From an uncultured Gammaproteobacteria bacterium (GTDB lineage Bacteria > Patescibacteriota > Patescibacteriia > Magasanikbacterales > JBBTXJ01): DNA of 64,000 nucleotides. The position numbers and the translations under genes were made by a program. Of the stretch, positions 2,668-21,762 are shown one piece after another. Numbering within the stretch: the first letter of the stretch is position 1; every line of letters begins with the position of its first letter. The notes below the pieces were generated by a model. That model ran no database searches and was not told where the DNA came from. It worked only from the letters and a program-made list of their open reading frames with translations. The stretch lies in NCBI GenBank assembly GCA_964610305.1, contig CAZSVL010000005.1:14815-78814 (forward strand), in the 5' to 3' direction.

Positions 2668-3019
2668 GTCATTCTGAACTTGATTCAGAATCTCACAGAA
2701 GTATGTCAGGATATAAATCTCTCCACTCCCTATTGTCTCTAGAAATCAAGTCTTCTTTCCAGGGACGTTTCCAGGCTTTCAGTTGCTTTTCTCGTGTGAT
2801 GGCTGACTCCGCATTTTCGTGAATGTCGTAATACACTAGTTTGTTTACGTTGTATTGCTTAGTAAAGCTTTCCTTGGCTCCCTCTCTGTGTTGCCACATT
2901 CTCTTTTTCAAATTACTCGTTACCCCAATGTACAAAACCGTATTGGTCTGATTGGATAAGATGTAGACGTAGTACTGTTTGTGCATTGCTGTTAGATCCT
3001 GAATCAAGTTCAGGATGAC
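2668..3019 (-). mobile_element. GIY-YIG gene cassette bounded by 25-bp terminal inverted repeats (putative small mobile element)
   Basis: Left end GTCATTCTGAACTTGATTCAGAATC (2668-2692). Right end GATCCTGAATCAAGTTCAGGATGAC (2995-3019), whose reverse complement is GTCATCCTGAACTTGATTCAGGATC. Each end is itself an internal palindrome. Confidence 0.5.
2693..2986 (-). CDS. GIY-YIG nuclease family protein (about 98 aa)
   Basis: YVYILSNQTNTVLYIGVTSNLKKRMWQHREG is a GIY-YIG/URI motif. ATG at 2986 is the likely start. The ORF-track extension to 3007 uses a TTG inside the inverted repeat. Confidence 0.75.
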   Translation of the reverse strand: MHKQYYVYILSNQTNTVLYIGVTSNLKKRMWQHREGAKESFTKQYNVNKLVYYDIHENAESAITREKQLKAWKRPWKEDLISRDNREWRDLYPDILL

Positions 3020-3080
3020 GAAGGGGTGTTCAGGATGACGAAGGGGTGTTCAGGATGACGAAGGGGTGTTCAGGATGACG
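3011..3080. repeat. tandem repeat, 20-bp unit CAGGATGACGAAGGGGTGTT x 3.5
   Basis: Perfect copies are read directly. The unit begins with the outer end of the right inverted repeat (TTCAGGATGACG) and sits between the GIY-YIG start and the trpS stop. Confidence 0.85.
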
Positions 3081-3081
3081 T

Positions 3082-4119
3082 CTACAAACCAATTTTTTTC
3101 CTGGCTTTTATCATGCTCTTCTCTGCAATAAAATGAGCCTTTCTGTTTGCCAGCTTTGAGAGTACGTCTCTTTTCAGCAGACCTGCACGTTTTTTTCTGA
3201 AGTTGCCAAAGTAATCTGAAATTGAGCGTGCTGTTGTTTGTTTGAGGTCTTTGTAAGAGATGGATTGGCCAGTAAAGCGCATGTTGTCTTTTTCTGAGCC
3301 AAAGTATTCTAGTAGTTTCAGCAGGTTGTACGCTCCAGCTACTCCTTCATTTTTTCCGGCTCCTGGTTTGAGAATCCATTCCCCTTTCCATGCTACAGGG
3401 ATTTTTCCGGTGCTCTCTGTTTTGGCTTTCTTAATTTTTTCTGCAATTGTTTTTGGAGAGTCGCTTAGATTGATGACGTTTTTTTCGCCATGAGATTTAC
3501 TCATTTTTTTATGAGGAGCGGTAAGGCTCATAACACGTGGGGTAGGGGTAAGGATGGGTCTGGCCTCTGGAAAGGTCTTTCCGTATCTATTGTTAAACCA
3601 GCGCGCAATTTTTCTAGTGAGCTCTACGTGTTGTACTTGGTCTTCTCCAACAGGCACGTGCGTCCCGCCGTAGAGTAGAATATCGGCCGCCTGCAAAACA
3701 GGGTAACTAAAGAGTCCATTATTAATATTATTTTTTTGATCTAATGACTTATCTTTAAATTGAGTCATCCGTGAGAGCTCTGCAATGGGCGTAACGCAAT
3801 TAAACATCCAGCCCAGCTCTGTGTGTTGAGGCACGGCCGATTGCAAAAAGAAAACAGACTTGCGATTGTTAATGCCAAGAGCAAAAAGCTCTGCTGCCAT
3901 CATTTTTACATTTTTTTTGAGCTCCTTGCTTTCAGGCGCTTGCGTCAGCACGTGCAAATCAGCAATAAAAAAGAAGCACTCGTTTTTTGGATCATCTTGC
4001 AATTGCTTCCAGTAGCGCAGCGCACCTAAATAATTTCCGATGTGAAGCGGTCCGCTTGGCTGAATGCCAGATACAATAGTGTGTTTCATAGTAGTCTTAT
4101 TGTAATCCCATATAGACAT
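3082..4119 (-). CDS. trpS: tryptophan--tRNA ligase
   Basis: Class I HIGH motif (PSGPLHIGNYLGA) and KMSKS (HKKMSKSHG). Overall TrpRS-like layout. True start may be the internal MKHTIVSG. Confidence 0.85.
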   Translation of the reverse strand: MSIWDYNKTTMKHTIVSGIQPSGPLHIGNYLGALRYWKQLQDDPKNECFFFIADLHVLTQAPESKELKKNVKMMAAELFALGINNRKSVFFLQSAVPQHTELGWMFNCVTPIAELSRMTQFKDKSLDQKNNINNGLFSYPVLQAADILLYGGTHVPVGEDQVQHVELTRKIARWFNNRYGKTFPEARPILTPTPRVMSLTAPHKKMSKSHGEKNVINLSDSPKTIAEKIKKAKTESTGKIPVAWKGEWILKPGAGKNEGVAGAYNLLKLLEYFGSEKDNMRFTGQSISYKDLKQTTARSISDYFGNFRKKRAGLLKRDVLSKLANRKAHFIAEKSMIKARKKIGL

Positions 4120-4224
4120 TTATGCAAAAAAATGCTATGGTGGTGCTACCGCGTCGGCCGGATGCCGGCATGTTCTGGATTCATGTGTGTTTGCTGTAGC
4201 GCAAAACGCTGCAGATTATCATGC

Positions 4225-5262
4225 ATGGAAAAGGAGGAGAAATTGGCAGAGCCAACAAGAAAGCAGCTGATAGCGCTTATGCAATTGCGTTTTGCGCCAG
4301 AGAATAGATTGTCCATTGATAGATGGCTGGCATACATAGCTGGTGTTTGTGGTGGGTTGATTGAAAAAGATGGACTGCAGCGCATCCTGCAGGGCGATCA
4401 CCCCAAAATTCAGATAGACATGGAATCAGTGGGTTTGGTGCCCGACATGCGAAGGTTTCAATTTTTTTGGAATCCCGTAGTTAGCGTTGAGCCTAGCGGT
4501 AAGTATGCCAACCAAGAGATTCTCTGCAGCGCTACGTATCCAGAAAACTGGCGTATGCTTCCAGTGGCAAGGCAAGCCGAGCTTTTAAAGCAGTTTTTTG
4601 ATGAGCTTGATGTCTCGCAGGTGCAGAAGGTTGCACAGGGGATTATGGTTCCTGAGGGTTTTGACGGCCTGGCAGTAATTCCAAAATTTGCAGCTATCGC
4701 AGATTTAGCTCATGACTACACGTTTCCTCCATTCAATGTTGCAATGAAGCGCTTGATGAGAGTTTTTAGCCAAGAATTTGAGGGATTTAAGCGCGACGCT
4801 TTTGCATGGTCTCCGGGCACCGCTGGACTATATGAGCCTACGAGAGCTTTTTTGGAGGAGTTGGCTGAGAGCACGCCAGGCGATTGTCTGGTGATGCCGG
4901 TTCAAACCGGCATACTTCATAGAGGTAGAAGTGTGCAGAGAGCGAGGGTGTGCTACACAGACGATGAGTATGGATTAGACATGTTTTCTGTGGGATGCAT
5001 ATTGCTTACCCATCAGGGGCGCTTGGCAGCTGACGCGCTGCATATCATCTGTCCGGGATCATCCGTTCAAAATTCTCTTCAGAGCCGAGTTGATTGGTCG
5101 TGCAATGGTGTTTGGCAAAAATCATCTTTGGTTGAACTTGTGCGACGCTCGAATTATAAACCCGTGAAAAACAGTGGGTGTGCAACTGCGCATTATCCAT
5201 TTAAAACCGGCGAAACGCAGTCGAGCACTGTGGATGAGAGCGCAAAGCTGCTAGAATTCTAA
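4225..5262 (+). CDS. hypothetical protein; paralog of the edge gene 1..719
   Basis: ORF-track start at 4042 overlaps trpS, so the in-frame ATG at 4225 (MEKEEKLAE) was chosen. Shares EGFDGLAVIPK, TPGDCLVMPVQTG and C-terminal KLLEF with the first gene. Confidence 0.45.
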   Translation: MEKEEKLAEPTRKQLIALMQLRFAPENRLSIDRWLAYIAGVCGGLIEKDGLQRILQGDHPKIQIDMESVGLVPDMRRFQFFWNPVVSVEPSGKYANQEILCSATYPENWRMLPVARQAELLKQFFDELDVSQVQKVAQGIMVPEGFDGLAVIPKFAAIADLAHDYTFPPFNVAMKRLMRVFSQEFEGFKRDAFAWSPGTAGLYEPTRAFLEELAESTPGDCLVMPVQTGILHRGRSVQRARVCYTDDEYGLDMFSVGCILLTHQGRLAADALHIICPGSSVQNSLQSRVDWSCNGVWQKSSLVELVRRSNYKPVKNSGCATAHYPFKTGETQSSTVDESAKLLEF

Positions 5263-5306
5263 ACCAAAAATCCTGCACTTGTTGAGTACAGGATTTTTTT
5301 GTTGTG

Positions 5307-5652
5307 GTCATCCCGGACTTGATCCGGGATCCAGGGAATACGGATATAAGTCTCTCCATTGAGGATTATGCTCTTCTATCAGATCAAGCTTCCATTTGCG
5401 TTTCCAATTTTTGAGCTGTTTTTCACGCGCAATAGCTTGGCTAGCAGATTTATATTCCTCAAAATGAACCAATTTTGATACATTGTATTCTTTTGTAAAT
5501 CCTTCTGCTTCTTTCTTTTTGTGTTGCCATGTTCGTTTGAGTACGTCGTTGCTTACACCGATGTAAATCGTACCATTTCTTTTACTAGCTAATATGTAGA
5601 CGTAGTACGATTTTGCCATATACACTGGATCCTGAATCAAGTTCAGGATGAC
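5307..5652 (-). mobile_element. second GIY-YIG cassette bounded by 25-bp terminal inverted repeats
   Basis: Left end GTCATCCCGGACTTGATCCGGGATC (5307-5331). Right end GATCCTGAATCAAGTTCAGGATGAC (5628-5652), identical to the right end of the first cassette. Confidence 0.5.
5308..5619 (-). CDS. GIY-YIG nuclease family protein (about 103 aa)
   Basis: YVYILASKRNGTIYIGVSNDVLKRTWQHKKK motif. ATG at 5619 is the likely start (track start at 5640 is again a TTG in the repeat). The C-terminal LDPGSSPG residues and the stop codon are encoded by the left inverted repeat. Confidence 0.75.
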   Translation of the reverse strand: MAKSYYVYILASKRNGTIYIGVSNDVLKRTWQHKKKEAEGFTKEYNVSKLVHFEEYKSASQAIAREKQLKNWKRKWKLDLIEEHNPQWRDLYPYSLDPGSSPG

Positions 5653-5658
5653 GATGTA

Positions 5659-7485: not shown

Positions 7486-7627
7486 ATTTGTTGCGCGATA
7501 AAATCGCGAAAGATATAAAGAAAGTTAAAGTTATTGATTATTAATTTTTAGACACCCACTAGTTTAGTTGGTGTTTTGTGTCGGGATCCTACCGCCTGCT
7601 ACGCGGCTCCAGGATGACGCTTGCGCG

Positions 7628-9811: not shown

Positions 9812-9899
9812 GAAGTATTCTAGTTCTTAGGAGAGTATAGCATGGTAGCGTGTTTGGGTCAAGGGTGTGGGGGTAGCGTTTAGGGTGTAGCCTCTTAGC

Positions 9900-9986
9900 G
9901 TCATCCGCAGCTTGATTCAGGATCCAGGTAGGAATATAAGACGTACTCTATTTCTGCCCTAGATTCTGAATCAAGTTCAGAATGAC
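9900..9986. mobile_element. miniature gene-less derivative of the GIY-YIG inverted-repeat element (two repeats about 37 bp apart)
   Basis: GTCATCCGCAGCTTGATTCAGGATC (9900-9924) and GATTCTGAATCAAGTTCAGAATGAC (9962-9986). The internal GGAATATAAGACGTACTC resembles the GGATATAAGTCTCTCC that follows the repeats in the gene-carrying copies. Confidence 0.5.
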
Positions 9987-10050
9987 AAGCTGGACTACAC
10001 ACACCCTATACCCTAACCGCTACACGCTGAGGATATGCTATAATAGGTGC

Positions 10051-17729: not shown

Positions 17730-19247
17730 ATGAAGAAAAATGAAGTAGTCCCGCCAACAGAGAGCGATTTTGATGGAAAAACAGAGAGACCCAAATCTTT
17801 TCTAGAAAAATTTAGACATGAGGGTGGTGGAAAGCTCAATAAGTTGGGCCGCATGGGTGCGCTTATTGTTTTAATGAATACGATGCCTACTCTAGAAGGG
17901 CAGTCTTTTGCCATGGATCAAGAGCCGGCAAAAAAATCTGGGACTATTGAGGACACCATGAGCGGCCCCGATATGGAAGAGCTTAAGGAGCTGCGGCCAA
18001 ATAATATTACCATAGATGATCATGAAATTACGCTGGATTATTCTGATGGATCAGGTGAGGGAACGGCAGAGACGGTGGTGGACGGAGACATGATTACCTC
18101 AGATGGCGTAGCAGAGTTTGAATACGGAGGAGCAGATTATGGTAATGCAGAGTTGCAGGAGAGTGAGAGAGACAATATAAAAGATCAGCTAAGAACCGTT
18201 ATAGATGGAGCACTCGCCGATTATAGTGAATGGGGAATAGATACTGATTCTGCGGTAGATAAAGTCTCTATTGGTGGGCCGGTTAGTTCTAGTCCAGAGG
18301 GAAATATTACACAGAAGGGGCAAGATGCAAATCAGAGATTATCAGAGCAGCGCGCGGAGATAATGAATGAGGTGGCGCAGGAGCTTTTGCAAGAATATGG
18401 TTTTAGTGAAGACATGGTGAGTGTTGATTTTTATGGAGAGGGCGTCTCTGGTGATATTACGGATTTAACCGATAGGCTAGAGAATGATTTGGGATTTGAT
18501 TTTGAGGGAAGTGATGATCAGGTGCGCTTAGAGACAAATGAATTTGTTGCAGATTATCATGATGGCAATTGGGATGCTATTTTTGATAGGCTTCCTGATG
18601 ATCTAGCGGAGAGTCCTGCACAAAAAGAAGCCCTCAAGCTAAAAATTGCAGAAATTTATGATCAGGAAATAGCGGCCGAGCGGTCTGCTGATGTGCAAGT
18701 ATCGCTTGAGAGCAAAGATGTAAAAGTTATAGCGCCAGAGAACCAAATGGCTACGACAGAAGATACGCCGCCAAAAAAAGTCGTGACGTTCTTAAAAGAG
18801 TATTATGATCCTGCCAAAAGAGGGTCTAACACACCTGGTGTGAATCCGCCATCTGGACCAACGGGATACCCACCGCCAGAACCTCGTGGGCCTAAGCCTC
18901 CTGTTGAGGGCGGTGTGCCTGTCCCGGTGCCTGTCCCAGAGCAGCCAAAGGATCCAAAGATGCCAGGAAGAGGAGAAACAGGTCCGCAAGGGATTCCATC
19001 TGATCCAGAGATTCCCATAGAGCCGCCGCAAGAAGTATCTGAACCCCAAACCGATCCAGAAGACCCGCCAGAGGATCCTCCAATAAAAACCACTGATCCA
19101 CCAGAGATAACAAAATATGAGAAATTCTTGAGAAGAAAAATGCTTAAGAAGAGCCCTAAGCATTACGTTGGACCTAAGCGAGCAAGAAAGGTAATGTCAA
19201 AACACATAGGAACAAAAGGCTCGGGGGGAAGAGGAGTATTTGGCTAA
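17730..19247 (+). CDS. hypothetical acidic protein with proline-rich C-terminal region
   Basis: Low-complexity PPSGPTGYPPPEPRGPKPPVEGGVPVPVPVPEQPKDP... tail. No catalytic motifs. Confidence 0.45.
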   Translation: MKKNEVVPPTESDFDGKTERPKSFLEKFRHEGGGKLNKLGRMGALIVLMNTMPTLEGQSFAMDQEPAKKSGTIEDTMSGPDMEELKELRPNNITIDDHEITLDYSDGSGEGTAETVVDGDMITSDGVAEFEYGGADYGNAELQESERDNIKDQLRTVIDGALADYSEWGIDTDSAVDKVSIGGPVSSSPEGNITQKGQDANQRLSEQRAEIMNEVAQELLQEYGFSEDMVSVDFYGEGVSGDITDLTDRLENDLGFDFEGSDDQVRLETNEFVADYHDGNWDAIFDRLPDDLAESPAQKEALKLKIAEIYDQEIAAERSADVQVSLESKDVKVIAPENQMATTEDTPPKKVVTFLKEYYDPAKRGSNTPGVNPPSGPTGYPPPEPRGPKPPVEGGVPVPVPVPEQPKDPKMPGRGETGPQGIPSDPEIPIEPPQEVSEPQTDPEDPPEDPPIKTTDPPEITKYEKFLRRKMLKKSPKHYVGPKRARKVMSKHIGTKGSGGRGVFG

Positions 19248-19810: not shown

Positions 19811-20754
19811 ACTTTTGGCGTTAGCGTTTGCAGAAATTTTGCCAACTCATCCGGGAGCGGAATTTCAAAGTCAACTTTTTTTTCATCAAGATTAGTAAAC
19901 CCTAACTTGGTAGCATGCAAAAAGAGCCTTTTTGCAGAGTCATCAATTTTTTGATTCTGTCTTTTGTGTCTGTAGAGTGGATCTCCCACAACAGCATGAT
20001 CAATGGCAAAAAGATGCACGCGTATCTGATGGGTTCTTCCTGTTTTTGGTTTAACGCTTAGCAATGTTGCGTTTGCGTAGCGTTTTTTTATTTCATAGTC
20101 CGTGATAGCCTCCTTACCTTCTTGAGAATTTGGTCTGGCCGCCATTTTCCCGCCGTTTTTGCTTCTAGCAATAGGAAAATTTATGGTTCCTAGCTCATCT
20201 TCCAGGAGACCATGTACCAGAACAGAATATTCCTTATCTACGGTGCGAGATGCAAATTGGGATTTTAGATTATCGTAAGATTCCTGTGTTAAAGCTATTA
20301 CCATAAGGCCGCTTGCGTCTTTATCTAGTCGGTGCATTATACCGGGACGGAGCTCTGGATCATCGCCAACATCATGAGACTGTGGGTATTTTTGTTTAAT
20401 CCAACTTGCCAGTGTGTGTTTTTCCATTCGGTCTGTTGGGTGTGCCAAGAGACCGAAAGGCTTATTAATAATTACGTATTCATCAGTTTTTTCTATTACC
20501 TCTACTGGTAATGGTTTGCTTTTGTCCTCCGTAATGGCAATACTTGGTTTTGAGACAACGGTTTTAAATACAACAATGTCATTTTCTTTGAGAAAATGGT
20601 GTGGGGCTAAAATAGGATCATTGGCAACCGTGACGCCACCAATTTTAATAATTTTTTGAATTTTACTTCTGGAAATATCAGGAAGCATGCGTACCAAAAA
20701 ATGATCCAGGCGCGAGCCCGCATCGCTTAATTGAGCAATAAATGATGCTTTCAT
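19807..20754 (-). CDS. RluA-family pseudouridine synthase (RluD-like, N-terminal S4 domain)
   Basis: S4 domain at the N-terminus. Catalytic HRLDKDASGLMV motif. KPxG at INKPFGLLAHP. Confidence 0.8.
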   Translation of the reverse strand: MKASFIAQLSDAGSRLDHFLVRMLPDISRSKIQKIIKIGGVTVANDPILAPHHFLKENDIVVFKTVVSKPSIAITEDKSKPLPVEVIEKTDEYVIINKPFGLLAHPTDRMEKHTLASWIKQKYPQSHDVGDDPELRPGIMHRLDKDASGLMVIALTQESYDNLKSQFASRTVDKEYSVLVHGLLEDELGTINFPIARSKNGGKMAARPNSQEGKEAITDYEIKKRYANATLLSVKPKTGRTHQIRVHLFAIDHAVVGDPLYRHKRQNQKIDDSAKRLFLHATKLGFTNLDEKKVDFEIPLPDELAKFLQTLTPKV

Positions 20755-20775
20755 ATGAGCCGCAGTATAGCACGC

Positions 20776-20804
20776 TTGAAAAAAAGCGCAAAAGATGGTA
20801 TTAT
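20776..20804 (+). promoter_or_regulatory. candidate promoter TTGAAA-17-TATTAT for the third GIY-YIG gene
   Basis: Hexamers at 20776-20781 and 20799-20804 with exactly 17-nt spacing. Lies inside the 5' end of the opposite-strand pseudouridine synthase gene. Confidence 0.4.
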
Positions 20805-20813
20805 TTGTGCCGT

Positions 20814-21080
20814 ATGGCTTGCGTCTACATTTTAAGATCAGAAAGTGGAAGGTATTATGTGGGCAGTGCGATTGATGTTGATTCTCGTTTGAGACACCAT
20901 AAGGGCGGATTTACTCATTCAACTGCTCGCATGGGTAAGTTGGAGGTTGTGTTAGTGCAGCAGTATGAGACTCTGAAAGAAGCACGTTTCGTTGAAAGAA
21001 GGATAAAGAGAATGAAAAGGAAAGATTACATTGATAAGATGGTGGCCGACGGAAAAATCAAAATTAAGATGCGTGAGTAG
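20814..21080 (+). CDS. GIY-YIG nuclease family protein (about 88 aa), whose stop codon overlaps the tRNA 5' end
   Basis: VYILRSESGRYYVGSAIDVDSRLRHHKGG is a GIY-YIG motif. Track start at 20742 overlaps the pseudouridine synthase gene; ATG 20814 preferred. Final codons ATG CGT GAG TAG are the first 10 nt of the tRNA. Confidence 0.65.
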   Translation: MACVYILRSESGRYYVGSAIDVDSRLRHHKGGFTHSTARMGKLEVVLVQQYETLKEARFVERRIKRMKRKDYIDKMVADGKIKIKMRE

Positions 21081-21143
21081 CTCAACCGGCAGAGCGCGAA
21101 GCTTATACCTTCGTGGTTCCAGGTTCAAGTCCTGGCTCACGCA
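21071..21143 (+). tRNA. tRNA, anticodon UAU (Ile, AUA-decoding), 73 nt, no encoded CCA
   Basis: Manual cloverleaf: 7-bp acceptor stem GCGTGAG/CTCACGC, D-stem GCTC/GAGC, anticodon stem CGAAG/CTTCG with loop C-U-UAU-A-C, T-arm CCAGG-TTCAAGT-CCTGG, and 5-nt variable loop. All stems are Watson-Crick. Confidence 0.7.
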
Positions 21144-21195
21144 CGAGTAGCCCCGACGCCCGAAGGGGTCGGGGGGCCGACTGAAACGTCGGCCC

Positions 21196-21258
21196 TCAAC
21201 CGGCAGAGCGCGAAGCTTATACCTTCGTGGTTCCAGGTTCAAGTCCTGGCTCACGCAC
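21196..21258 (+). repeat. 63-bp perfect direct repeat of the tRNA 3' portion (D-loop to discriminator); partial pseudo-tRNA
   Basis: Identical to 21081-21143. It lacks the 5' acceptor strand and a D-stem partner. The 52-bp spacer holds two small GC hairpins. Confidence 0.8.
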
Positions 21259-21265
21259 AAAAGAG

Positions 21266-21292
21266 GCCCTTGACTAAGCAAGGGTTTTTTGT
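21266..21292 (+). terminator. intrinsic terminator CCCTTG-ACTAAG-CAAGGG plus TTTTTT
   Basis: Read directly after the partial tRNA copy. Confidence 0.6.
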
Positions 21293-21322
21293 TATGCTTT
21301 TTGCCAATGCCAAGGGGGCTAT

Positions 21323-21685
21323 GTGACAGAAGTGGACACCAGCAAAGTACACAAAGTTTTTGTTGAGTTAAACAATGACAGGAAGATGGGGTTTGTGTAT
21401 TTTTCGTGCAAGAAAGGGGTGAGGAGAGGCACACTTTTTGTGCATAAGCCCGCGCGCGTTAGAACAGCGCGGAGCATCGTGGTAGATGTGGATGGTGGAC
21501 AGGCCGGACACAAAGAAGACGTTACGCTTACACTAGATCCCGATGATTGGGTTTACGTTACCCTTGATAACGCCGGGTATTGCAAGGTGAGGGTGCGGCT
21601 CGCTCAAGTTCAGTGTGCCAATCTTGCAGGTCACGGCCGCTTTTATTTTGAAGTTCAGGGGGCGGATCAAGCCAGAGGAAGGTAA
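21323..21685 (+). CDS. hypothetical protein
   Basis: GTG start with an AAGGGGG SD. No recognisable motif. Could be non-coding. Confidence 0.3.
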   Translation: MTEVDTSKVHKVFVELNNDRKMGFVYFSCKKGVRRGTLFVHKPARVRTARSIVVDVDGGQAGHKEDVTLTLDPDDWVYVTLDNAGYCKVRVRLAQVQCANLAGHGRFYFEVQGADQARGR

Positions 21686-21689
21686 AGTG

Positions 21690-21718
21690 GGACGCTGTGG
21701 AAACGCAGCGTTTTTTTA
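21690..21718 (+). terminator. intrinsic terminator ACGCTG-TGGAAA-CGCAGCGT plus T7
   Basis: Read directly. Confidence 0.6.
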
Positions 21719-21721
21719 TTG

Positions 21722-21749
21722 TTGACACCTATTGACACCTTTTGATACC
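21722..21749 (+). promoter_or_regulatory. three direct repeats TTGA(C/T)ACC phased at 10 bp (candidate operator/promoter) immediately upstream of the HTH gene
   Basis: TTGACACC at 21722, TTGACACC at 21732 and TTGATACC at 21742. The gene start is 14 nt downstream. Confidence 0.4.
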
Positions 21750-21762
21750 ATAAAGCTTAACT

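Follow-up and report, generated by a model that had tools for sequence, protein, structure and literature searches.

In a 64,000-nucleotide stretch of contig CAZSVL010000005.1 (positions 14,815 to 78,814; hereafter the window), which derives from an uncultured bacterium of the Patescibacteriota, a tRNA-Ile(UAU) gene is joined to a small GIY-YIG nuclease gene, and part of the same tRNA is present a second time downstream. The best reading of this arrangement is a mobile cassette that disrupts the resident tRNA gene and retains a working copy. The cassette has three parts: a minimal GIY-YIG gene abutting an intact tRNA on its 5′ side, a short remnant of a tRNA 5′ portion, and a double hairpin located between tRNA positions 10 and 11 (10/11). 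We place the probability at about 0.75 that positions 20805–21194 are a selfish GIY-YIG/tRNA/double-hairpin cassette inserted in the tRNA-Ile(UAU) gene, and that the 64-bp "duplicate" beside it is the displaced 3′ portion of that gene rather than an attachment (att) site.

The initial annotation of this DNA had described a well-folded tRNA with a GIY-YIG open reading frame (ORF) joined onto its 5′ end, and both descriptions hold. The sole tRNA of the window is called tRNA-Ile(UAU) by ARAGORN at 21071–21144 and is matched by Rfam at 21071–21143 with 68.7 bits. The 3′ end of the 88-amino-acid (aa) ORF reads ATG CGT GAG TAG, which is "AT" followed by tRNA positions 1–10, and as read from the sequence its TAG stop codon is formed by U8-A9-G10 of the tRNA. 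A direct repeat of tRNA sequence follows, in which 21081–21144 and 21195–21258 are identical at 64 of 64 bp; none of 100 shuffled controls gave any repeat match. The repeat spans D-stem position 11 to one base beyond the discriminator. Hence, the partial copy is indeed perfect and lacks the 5′ acceptor strand, as had been noted, although its length is 64 bp instead of 63 and the spacer between the copies (21145–21194) is 50 bp instead of 52.

The spacer accounts for the second copy. It begins with GAGTAG, which corresponds to tRNA positions 5–10, and continues with two GC hairpins of the form NNCCGAC-loop-GTCGGNN. Since the spacer is composed of tRNA positions 5–10 plus two hairpins, the second copy is a tRNA without positions 1–4 in which a 44-bp double hairpin separates D-stem positions 10 and 11. 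If the comparison is extended to 21141–21150 (GCACGAGTAG), which overlaps the 3′ end of the intact tRNA, the match to tRNA positions 1–10 has two mismatches. Remnants equivalent to GAGTAG, 3–10 nt in length, are located ahead of hairpins at loci from related genomes (L021, L039, L040, L060, L077, L034, and L006; loci and contigs other than the window are given L numbers). The TGAAAC loop of the second hairpin is the second most common loop among hairpins of the family. The displaced 3′ part scores only 30.5 bits with Rfam and is not called by ARAGORN. It is located directly before the terminator, which is the place occupied by the single tRNA of a congener (L086). In L001, an independently made Logan assembly of SRR8146441, the sequence is the same until ∼30 nt into the repeat, where the assembly breaks. 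A break at this point fits an assembler with k = 31, which indicates that the repeat is not the artifact of one assembler. The features of the locus are listed in Table 1.

Table 1. Coordinates of the cassette and flanking features in the window
Feature	Position	Strand	Basis
Native tRNA-Ile promoter (TTGAAA, 17 nt, TG-n-TATTAT)	20776–20804	+	Promoter scan 10/12, extended -10
Left junction and 9-nt leader TTGTGCCGT	20805–20813	+	Window versus L086; replaces 10-nt native leader GGCTGCGCCT
GIY-YIG gene, 88 aa, UPF0213/Slx1-like type (predicted)	20814–21080	+	PF01541 at 1.1e-10, catalytic residues, AF2, Foldseek
tRNA-Ile(UAU), intact, working copy	21071–21143	+	ARAGORN, Rfam 68.7 bits
GAGTAG, 5′ remnant of split copy (tRNA positions 5–10)	21145–21150	+	Sequence reading
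Hairpin 1: CCCCGAC / GCCCGAAGGG / GTCGGGG	21151–21174	n/a	7-bp-stem family with covarying outer pairs
Hairpin 2: GGCCGAC / TGAAAC / GTCGGCC	21175–21194	n/a	Near-identical to hairpin 2 of L021
Displaced tRNA 3′ part (positions 11–73 plus 1 base)	21195–21258	+	64/64 identical to 21081–21144
Intrinsic terminator of the tRNA transcription unit	21261–21290	+	Terminator scan

An empty version of this site is present in L086, a contig from a congener. A scan of metagenomes with RluD gave only one relative, at 40% identity, and synteny was therefore taken from the contigs of RluD homologs. The gene order in L086 is L19, Gmk, RluD, a divergent tRNA-Ile, a 122-aa ORF, HTH_17, ABC2, ABC, GT2, and NeuB, and its RluD is 78% identical to that of the window. 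At the tRNA-Ile locus of L086, the same promoter is followed by a 10-nt leader, a single tRNA-Ile(UAU), and a terminator, and no GIY gene, hairpin, or tRNA duplicate is present. The junction was read by direct comparison of the window with L086. Their sigma-70-type promoters are identical up to the last T of TATTAT, and there the sequences diverge. The two tRNAs are 97% identical, and their sole difference is a compensated pair, 4:69. In two more distant relatives (L088 and L089), rluD is likewise divergent from a lone tRNA-Ile with no cassette. The window arrangement is an insertion relative to the congener, and its presence or absence is polymorphic at an otherwise syntenic locus. By the same comparison, the native tRNA promoter now appears to drive the GIY-YIG ORF together with the tRNA. 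A simple local duplication, which the initial annotation had raised in case relatives carried the duplicated tRNA without inserted DNA, is not what L086 reveals, because it has neither duplication nor insert.

Evidence that such cassettes can bring a tRNA with them comes from loci where the split and intact copies differ. Acceptor pairs were compared for L034, L039, L044, L029, L021, L013, and the window only. L034 is a tRNA-Ile(UAU) locus that is split at 10/11. On its left side, the fragment GCGCCTG-TAG precedes hairpins, and after these come CTCAAT, the GIY gene, and an intact tRNA-Ile whose acceptor strand is GCGCGCG; to the right of this intact tRNA are TAG, hairpins, and a 3′ part ending in CAGGCGC. 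The outer halves (GCGCCTG...CAGGCGC) pair with each other at 7 of 7 positions and do not pair with the intact gene. Moreover, the intact tRNA is 85%–89% identical to the tRNA-Ile found by related GIY genes of other species (L026, L005, and L007), but its identity to the split resident copy is only 68%. In L039, L044, L029, and L077 as well, the stems of the split 3′ copy are unlike those of the intact tRNA. The simplest explanation for these differences is that the GIY gene at times arrived with a foreign working tRNA and left the resident tRNA split.

The association between this gene and tRNAs is widespread. A first homolog search gave four metagenome relatives, and in all three contigs that were readable the gene is located against a tRNA accompanied by hairpin-split tRNA fragments. 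A profile search gave 2858 relatives of 86–90 aa, the named ones being from Patescibacteria. A scan of one genome per species provided a set of 80 loci, nearly all of which are labeled Patescibacteria (some automated titles of metagenome-assembled genomes [MAGs] differ), and tRNA positions were assigned with ARAGORN and a hidden Markov model (HMM). At ∼73 of the 80 loci, a same-strand tRNA starts between −32 and +84 nt from the GIY stop codon, and the rest have disrupted tRNAs or contig ends. Twelve types of tRNA are represented among the neighbors (Arg, Thr, Phe, Val, Ile, Lys, Ala, Asn, Met, His, Pro, and Gly).

At 27 of the 80 loci, as well as in L003 and the window, the first base of the tRNA is exactly 7 nt ahead of the GIY stop, such that the stop is U8A9G10. 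At another ∼25 loci of the set, the stop is located 3–9 nt upstream of tRNA position 1. The share of 27 in 80 equals the one in three expected for a random frame, and the overlap is thus most readily regarded as a by-product of an ORF that abuts a tRNA. For this reason a regulatory meaning of the overlap was set aside.

Protein identity across the family is low, with a median of 53%, and two copies within one MAG are 55% identical. The same type of tRNA is found beside similar GIY proteins in 33% of cases versus 15% by chance, and proteins that are 70%–74% identical are also found beside different tRNAs. The low identities, the bias toward the same tRNA, and the occasional switches together suggest a family that is old and persistent and that sometimes changes targets, rather than one that spreads in transposon-like bursts. 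No real relatives of the family were found on viral contigs, and a phage origin is therefore unsupported.

The hairpins recur along with the gene. CCGAC..GTCGG hairpins are present within 130 bp upstream of the ATG at 70 of 83 loci, mostly as a pair and at times with one nested within the loop of another. Before them comes a tRNA 5′ fragment that ends at position 10 (...TAG) or 15 (...TAGCTCAG), and they are followed by a few bases corresponding to positions 11 or 16 onward and then by the GIY start codon. The split points are always in the D-arm, at 10/11 or 15/16. The acceptor strand of the fragment is the same as that of the adjacent intact tRNA at 27 of 63 loci, against a background of 1.2%. 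Hairpins are also located immediately 3′ of the intact tRNA at 19 of 74 loci. About 13 of those 19 resemble the window in that the 3′ part of the same isoacceptor comes after the hairpins, and the identity of this part ranges from 100% (64/64 in the window, 59/59 in L021, and 55/55 in L040) down to ∼67%.

Hairpins of this type occur at 3.4 per kb near GIY genes and at 0.079 per kb elsewhere in the loci, a 43-fold difference, and the only two in the 64-kb window are those of the spacer. Double hairpins are almost confined to GIY cassettes, with a few solo examples away from tRNAs. The stem is 7 bp (NN-CCGAC/GTCGG-NN) with an invariant CCGAC/GTCGG core. Of 250 hairpins, 81% have complementary bases at the two outer pairs, where 3–4 pair types are represented, and only 20% at the next position out. 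Departures of the U-G and C-A types are equally frequent in the stems, a pattern that agrees with selection acting at the DNA level, or on both strands, and not on a single RNA strand.

Some loci carry more than one hairpin module. Near-identical modules with the same tRNA bits flank the GIY gene and tRNA on both sides in L027, L077, L039, and L021. In L055, L008, L014, and L024, the GIY gene is separated from the intact tRNA by extra modules of the order fragment-hairpin-fragment, and L055 has a C-terminal remnant of a GIY gene there as well. These two-sided and internal modules look like the result of repeated insertion at a regenerated site. Hairpins nested within hairpin loops are present in L012, L026, L041, and L045.

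Other unusual arrangements were observed at individual loci. Downstream from the cassette in L012 (2440–2520) is a tandem array of a 23-bp unit holding a GCCGAC-GTAAA-GTCGGC hairpin, which indicates that hairpins can amplify in tandem. In L007 (430–700), an insert that itself contains a tRNA-Ile interrupts the anticodon loop of another tRNA-Ile. L004 (4245–4320) has a tRNA-Met copy in which the anticodon arm is replaced by a hairpin, and a tRNA-Thr is interrupted after the anticodon stem in L064 (2250–2440).

Sequence and structural modeling place the 88-aa protein of the window in the GIY-YIG superfamily as a predicted nuclease. PF01541 matches residues 1–70 with 42.1 bits (cut-off 22.6), and five residues that are invariant in 42 family members (Y5, Y15, R25, H29, and E61) are all present. 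The AF2 model (predicted local distance difference test [pLDDT] 86.5) has the three-stranded sheet and helices of the GIY-YIG fold plus one basic C-terminal helix (E-E-H-H-E-H-H overall), and the top Foldseek matches are 1zg2, Slx1 (TMq 0.66), and the UvrC N-terminal domain. Among solved proteins, the UPF0213 members BH0048 and EF2693 are nearest, then Slx1, then the UvrC N-terminal domain, with I-TevI much weaker. The public gene call (P0001, 20859–21080) starts at an internal GTG and gives an N-terminally truncated product of 73 aa; the family alignment favors the ATG at 20814. The truncated product is without the first strand, which bears the GIY tyrosine, and this is probably why the record has no Pfam domain.

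If the cassette is mobile, then its spread might proceed as follows. In cassette-free genomes, the predicted nuclease would start recombination, either in the D-arm DNA of tRNA genes or at the hairpins, and repair would then copy the cassette in by a homing-like process. The sole functional copy of an essential tRNA would be supplied by the cassette or would have the cassette in its leader. A cassette tied to this copy would be expressed from the tRNA promoter and would be hard to lose. The form present in the window is GIY-tRNA-remnant-hairpins-3′ part, with the left junction between the -10 box and the ORF. The common form (fragment-hairpin-fragment-GIY-tRNA) could arise from a full form with two modules via recombination between the two 3′ tRNA parts, and the perfect 64-bp repeat of the window would be a substrate of just that kind. 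If the co-transcript is processed by RNase P, then the stop codon would be stripped from the mRNA at loci where the ORF overlaps the tRNA.

Several points weigh against the interpretation of this locus as a selfish cassette. The window lacks the hairpin module that most loci have upstream of the ORF, and its left junction is atypical. The intact tRNA by the gene retains the presumed target, which poses a problem of self-cleavage. The number of filled/empty pairs is one. Furthermore, the cleavage role of the 88-aa protein is a prediction from sequence and modeling. The protein comprises a catalytic domain and a C-terminal helix with no separate DNA-binding domain, unlike characterized GIY-YIG homing enzymes, and recognition of a long site is therefore doubtful. 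Seg-type enzymes, for example, have an extra DNA-binding region. The two tRNA copies of the window are of native type (97% to L086) and identical to each other, which suggests that the event either was recent and within the population or was followed by homogenization through gene conversion. At this locus, a local duplication in the cassette or gene conversion is inseparable from import. Finally, the correlations of GIY sequence with hairpin type and with tRNA type are confounded by host phylogeny.

The alternative that survives best concerns only the mechanism of mobility, and its probability overlaps with the figure given above instead of adding to it. The element could be a hairpin-ended transposon that inserts in the hairpin-forming D-arms of tRNA genes, in which the double hairpins are ends that the Slx1-like nuclease cuts as extruded hairpins or cruciforms. 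Staggered cuts around the hairpin module would duplicate the module on both sides, as is seen for the near-identical modules of L027, L077, L039, and L021. The nested hairpins (L012, L026, L041, and L045) and the few solo double hairpins outside tRNAs also agree with this model, as does the invariant CCGAC/GTCGG core, which suggests a recognized site. The structure-specific nuclease Slx1 is among the closest solved relatives, the protein has no DNA-binding domain, and the other two GIY genes of the window (described below) are bracketed by inverted palindromes. The small size and Slx1-like affinity of the protein favor a model with hairpin ends. In contrast, no transposition bursts are seen, given identities of 55% for two copies in one MAG and 53% for the family median, and a hit in a single-copy tRNA would be lethal unless a tRNA travels with the element. 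In addition, no GIY-YIG transposase is known. The divergence pattern and the co-transfer of tRNAs favor homing, and we regard transposition by hairpin ends as possible but rather unlikely.

Two further explanations would deny that the parts form a mobile unit, and we consider both to be very improbable. The first is coincidence, in which a tandem tRNA duplication was followed by insertion of hairpins of the type found in repetitive extragenic palindromes (REPs), with the GIY-YIG gene as an unrelated neighbor. This would account for window copies that are identical and native in type, and GC hairpin repeats are common in bacteria. However, coincidence does not predict hairpins that are 43 times denser by GIY genes than elsewhere, a split that is always at D-arm 10/11 or 15/16, or an ORF that abuts the tRNA 5′ end at nearly every locus, and in L034, L039, L044, and L029 the split and intact copies are different alleles. 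The second is that a nuclease and a tRNA-like or hairpin RNA form an operon with a host function, such as tRNA processing, quality control, or regulation by decoy fragments. Strict co-orientation and likely co-transcription with tRNAs would be expected for such an operon, the hairpins are maintained by covariation, and in an alternative fold the second copy is paired with the 5′ acceptor strand. Yet congeners have the same locus without the cassette, the identity of the tRNA varies among loci, the fragments decay, and GIY remnants occur (L055). The symmetry of the U-G and C-A departures also argues against selection at the RNA level.

The initial annotation had taken the duplicated tRNA segment as a sign of site-specific integration or excision at the tRNA gene and had pointed to a downstream gene for an excisionase-family helix–turn–helix (HTH) protein and the glycan cluster after it. 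It had stated that the short spacer delimits no large island, and had suggested that a third copy might delimit one such as 21.2–43.6 kb. Comparison with L086 bears out the insertion of foreign DNA at the tRNA gene and argues against the integrase. The HTH_17 gene, the TGACACC repeats ahead of it, and the ABC/GT2/NeuB glycan cluster are in the same order in L086 beside an unduplicated tRNA, indicating that they are conserved neighbors and not island cargo. A third copy of the 64-bp tRNA segment, which might have delimited such an island, was not found in the 64-kb window at up to three mismatches or by a repeat search. An integration or excision scar, in which the repeat represents attL/attR and the island is mostly lost or elsewhere, is thus extremely unlikely even though att sites are classically recognized from a directly repeated tRNA 3′ portion and a gene of the excisionase family (TIGR01764, 37.5 bits) is located 0.5 kb downstream, since a profile scan of ORFs gave no recombinase gene between 12.9 and 30 kb, only 50 bp and no kilobase cargo separate the repeats, the spacer is a tRNA 5′ remnant with hairpins typical of the family, and the same structure is found beside GIY genes in ∼80 species.

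Other candidates were rejected. A group I intron with its endonuclease is not indicated, as no intron family was matched at E ≤ 1 by Rfam in 20700–21400, the interruption is in the D-arm, and the ORF is outside the tRNA. Rfam matched only tRNA in a search of the spacer and gave no family for the double-hairpin module. A functional split or spliced tRNA was dismissed because the hairpin-bearing copies are truncated or decayed, and the copy in the window has no positions 1–4. An element of the REP/RAYT or IS200/IS605 type is likewise not indicated, since the associated protein is GIY-YIG and no HUH (Y1) transposase gene was seen among profile-scanned ORFs at 12.9–30 kb.

Among known systems, phage T4 SegB may be regarded by analogy as the closest functional counterpart. 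SegB is a free-standing GIY-YIG homing endonuclease in a tRNA gene cluster, and it promotes inheritance or amplification of the adjacent tRNA region (PMC2330249; also PMC13096335). The two systems share a GIY-YIG gene among tRNA genes and a presence/absence polymorphism between relatives. The abstract on SegB does not mention an ORF–tRNA fusion, a hairpin module, or a split tRNA copy. Unlike the phage system, the present family is cellular, has no relatives on viral contigs, and encodes only 88 aa.

The cassette also shares features with tRNA-targeting islands and prophages, whose insertion likewise spares a functional tRNA and creates directly repeated tRNA sequence. Those elements depend on tyrosine or serine recombinases, and the duplication around their cargo of many kilobases is limited to the 3′ part of the tRNA, whereas the cassette has no recombinase, splits the D-arm, keeps a full tRNA copy, and carries a single 88-aa nuclease gene as cargo. 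The protein is most like UPF0213/YhbQ (PDB 1zg2 and 1ywl) and Slx1 in sequence and fold, and UPF0213 proteins share its single-domain size of ∼90–100 aa. Neither a function nor a genomic association has been established for UPF0213 proteins. Slx1 differs in having a RING/PHD domain and the Slx4 partner, and it acts in repair rather than as part of a mobile element. In fungal mitochondria (Allomyces atp6), an endonuclease ORF is fused to a host gene, a displaced duplicate fragment is left, and short mobile double hairpins are associated with it. Those cases are organellar, involve a protein-coding target and other hairpin sequences, and have no established link between hairpin and nuclease.

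A further parallel is found in rRNA genes of the candidate phyla radiation (CPR), where sparse GIY-YIG ORFs are carried by insertions belonging to neither the group I nor the group II introns (PMC11270868). Most of the rRNA insertion sequences overall, though not the GIY-YIG ones specifically, are situated at either the top or the base of RNA stem-loops (PMC11270868). The bacterial group is the same, and the top and base of a stem-loop are comparable to 15/16 and 10/11 of the D stem-loop. That study covers rRNA genes and never mentions tRNA. A full-text literature search of incomplete coverage gave no published GIY-YIG/tRNA/double-hairpin cassette, a result that does not prove novelty. The cassette is most readily placed among free-standing homing-type nuclease cassettes, and there is a substantial chance that it forms an element class of its own. 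At somewhat short of an even chance, we tentatively propose an unreported class of mobile element, ubiquitous in Patescibacteria, in which a minimal UPF0213/Slx1-like nuclease, with conserved CCGAC/GTCGG double hairpins as cis sites, would invade tRNA D-arms. The element would carry or regenerate a replacement tRNA and so could not be lost by the host, a gene-for-gene hostage strategy, and this reading would also provide the first biological role for the widespread UPF0213/YhbQ family.

Additional observations were made in the window. Two other GIY-YIG genes, which are encoded by the minus strand (2693–2986 and 5308–5619), share 36% identity with the third, and neither adjoins a tRNA. Inverted copies of another palindrome, GTCATCCTGAACTTGATTCAGGATC, are present on the two sides of each gene (over 2668–3080 and 5299–5654), and on one side of the first gene are approximately four tandem copies of the 20-bp unit GTTCAGGATGACGAAGGGGT (3008–3080). 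Judged from their sequence, these two look like nuclease cassettes of a second kind that are bounded by hairpins or terminal inverted repeats (TIRs). Solo copies or variants of the GTCATCC...GGATC palindrome family are present in intergenic DNA of the first 10 kb (1353–1425, 2598–2640, 7575–7620, and 9898–9990), which suggests that a hairpin repeat associated with the second GIY-YIG subfamily is dispersed in this DNA. Two paralogous ORFs of unknown function (36–719 and 4042–5262; 44% identity over 142 aa) are within ∼2 kb of the GIY-YIG genes of this subfamily, one of them being separated by two ORFs.

Near the tRNA, three phased TGACACC/TGATACC repeats upstream of HTH_17 are conserved between the window (21690–21762) and L086 (3960–4010). 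They probably serve as an operator for the ABC/glycan cluster downstream and have no relation to the tRNA cassette. L086 has an extra, apparently hydrophobic 89-aa ORF (4491–4760, minus strand) between the tRNA terminator and the 122-aa ORF. It is not present in the window and would represent a second indel at the same intergenic hotspot. A 505-aa ORF with a very proline-rich C-terminal half and no Pfam match is located upstream of gmk (17730–19247). The UAU anticodon of the tRNA-Ile is genomically encoded and recurs in several relatives (L086, L087, and L088). Bacteria normally use a modified CAU tRNA made with TilS, and an encoded UAU is unusual. Its recurrence hints at TilS-independent decoding of AUA in this lineage.

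If the proposed cassette is real, then it would explain an abundant and so far unexplained gene family of CPR genomes (2858 relatives in one search), as well as the frequent assembly breaks beside tRNA genes in these genomes. For annotation, the rule that a repeat of a tRNA 3′ end marks an integrase att site would be unsafe in these organisms. Such a cassette would also demonstrate that a selfish gene can colonize essential single-copy tRNA genes without killing the host. Moreover, it would tie the UPF0213/YhbQ nucleases, which are of unknown function, to hairpin DNA, to the turnover of tRNA genes, and to horizontal tRNA replacement.

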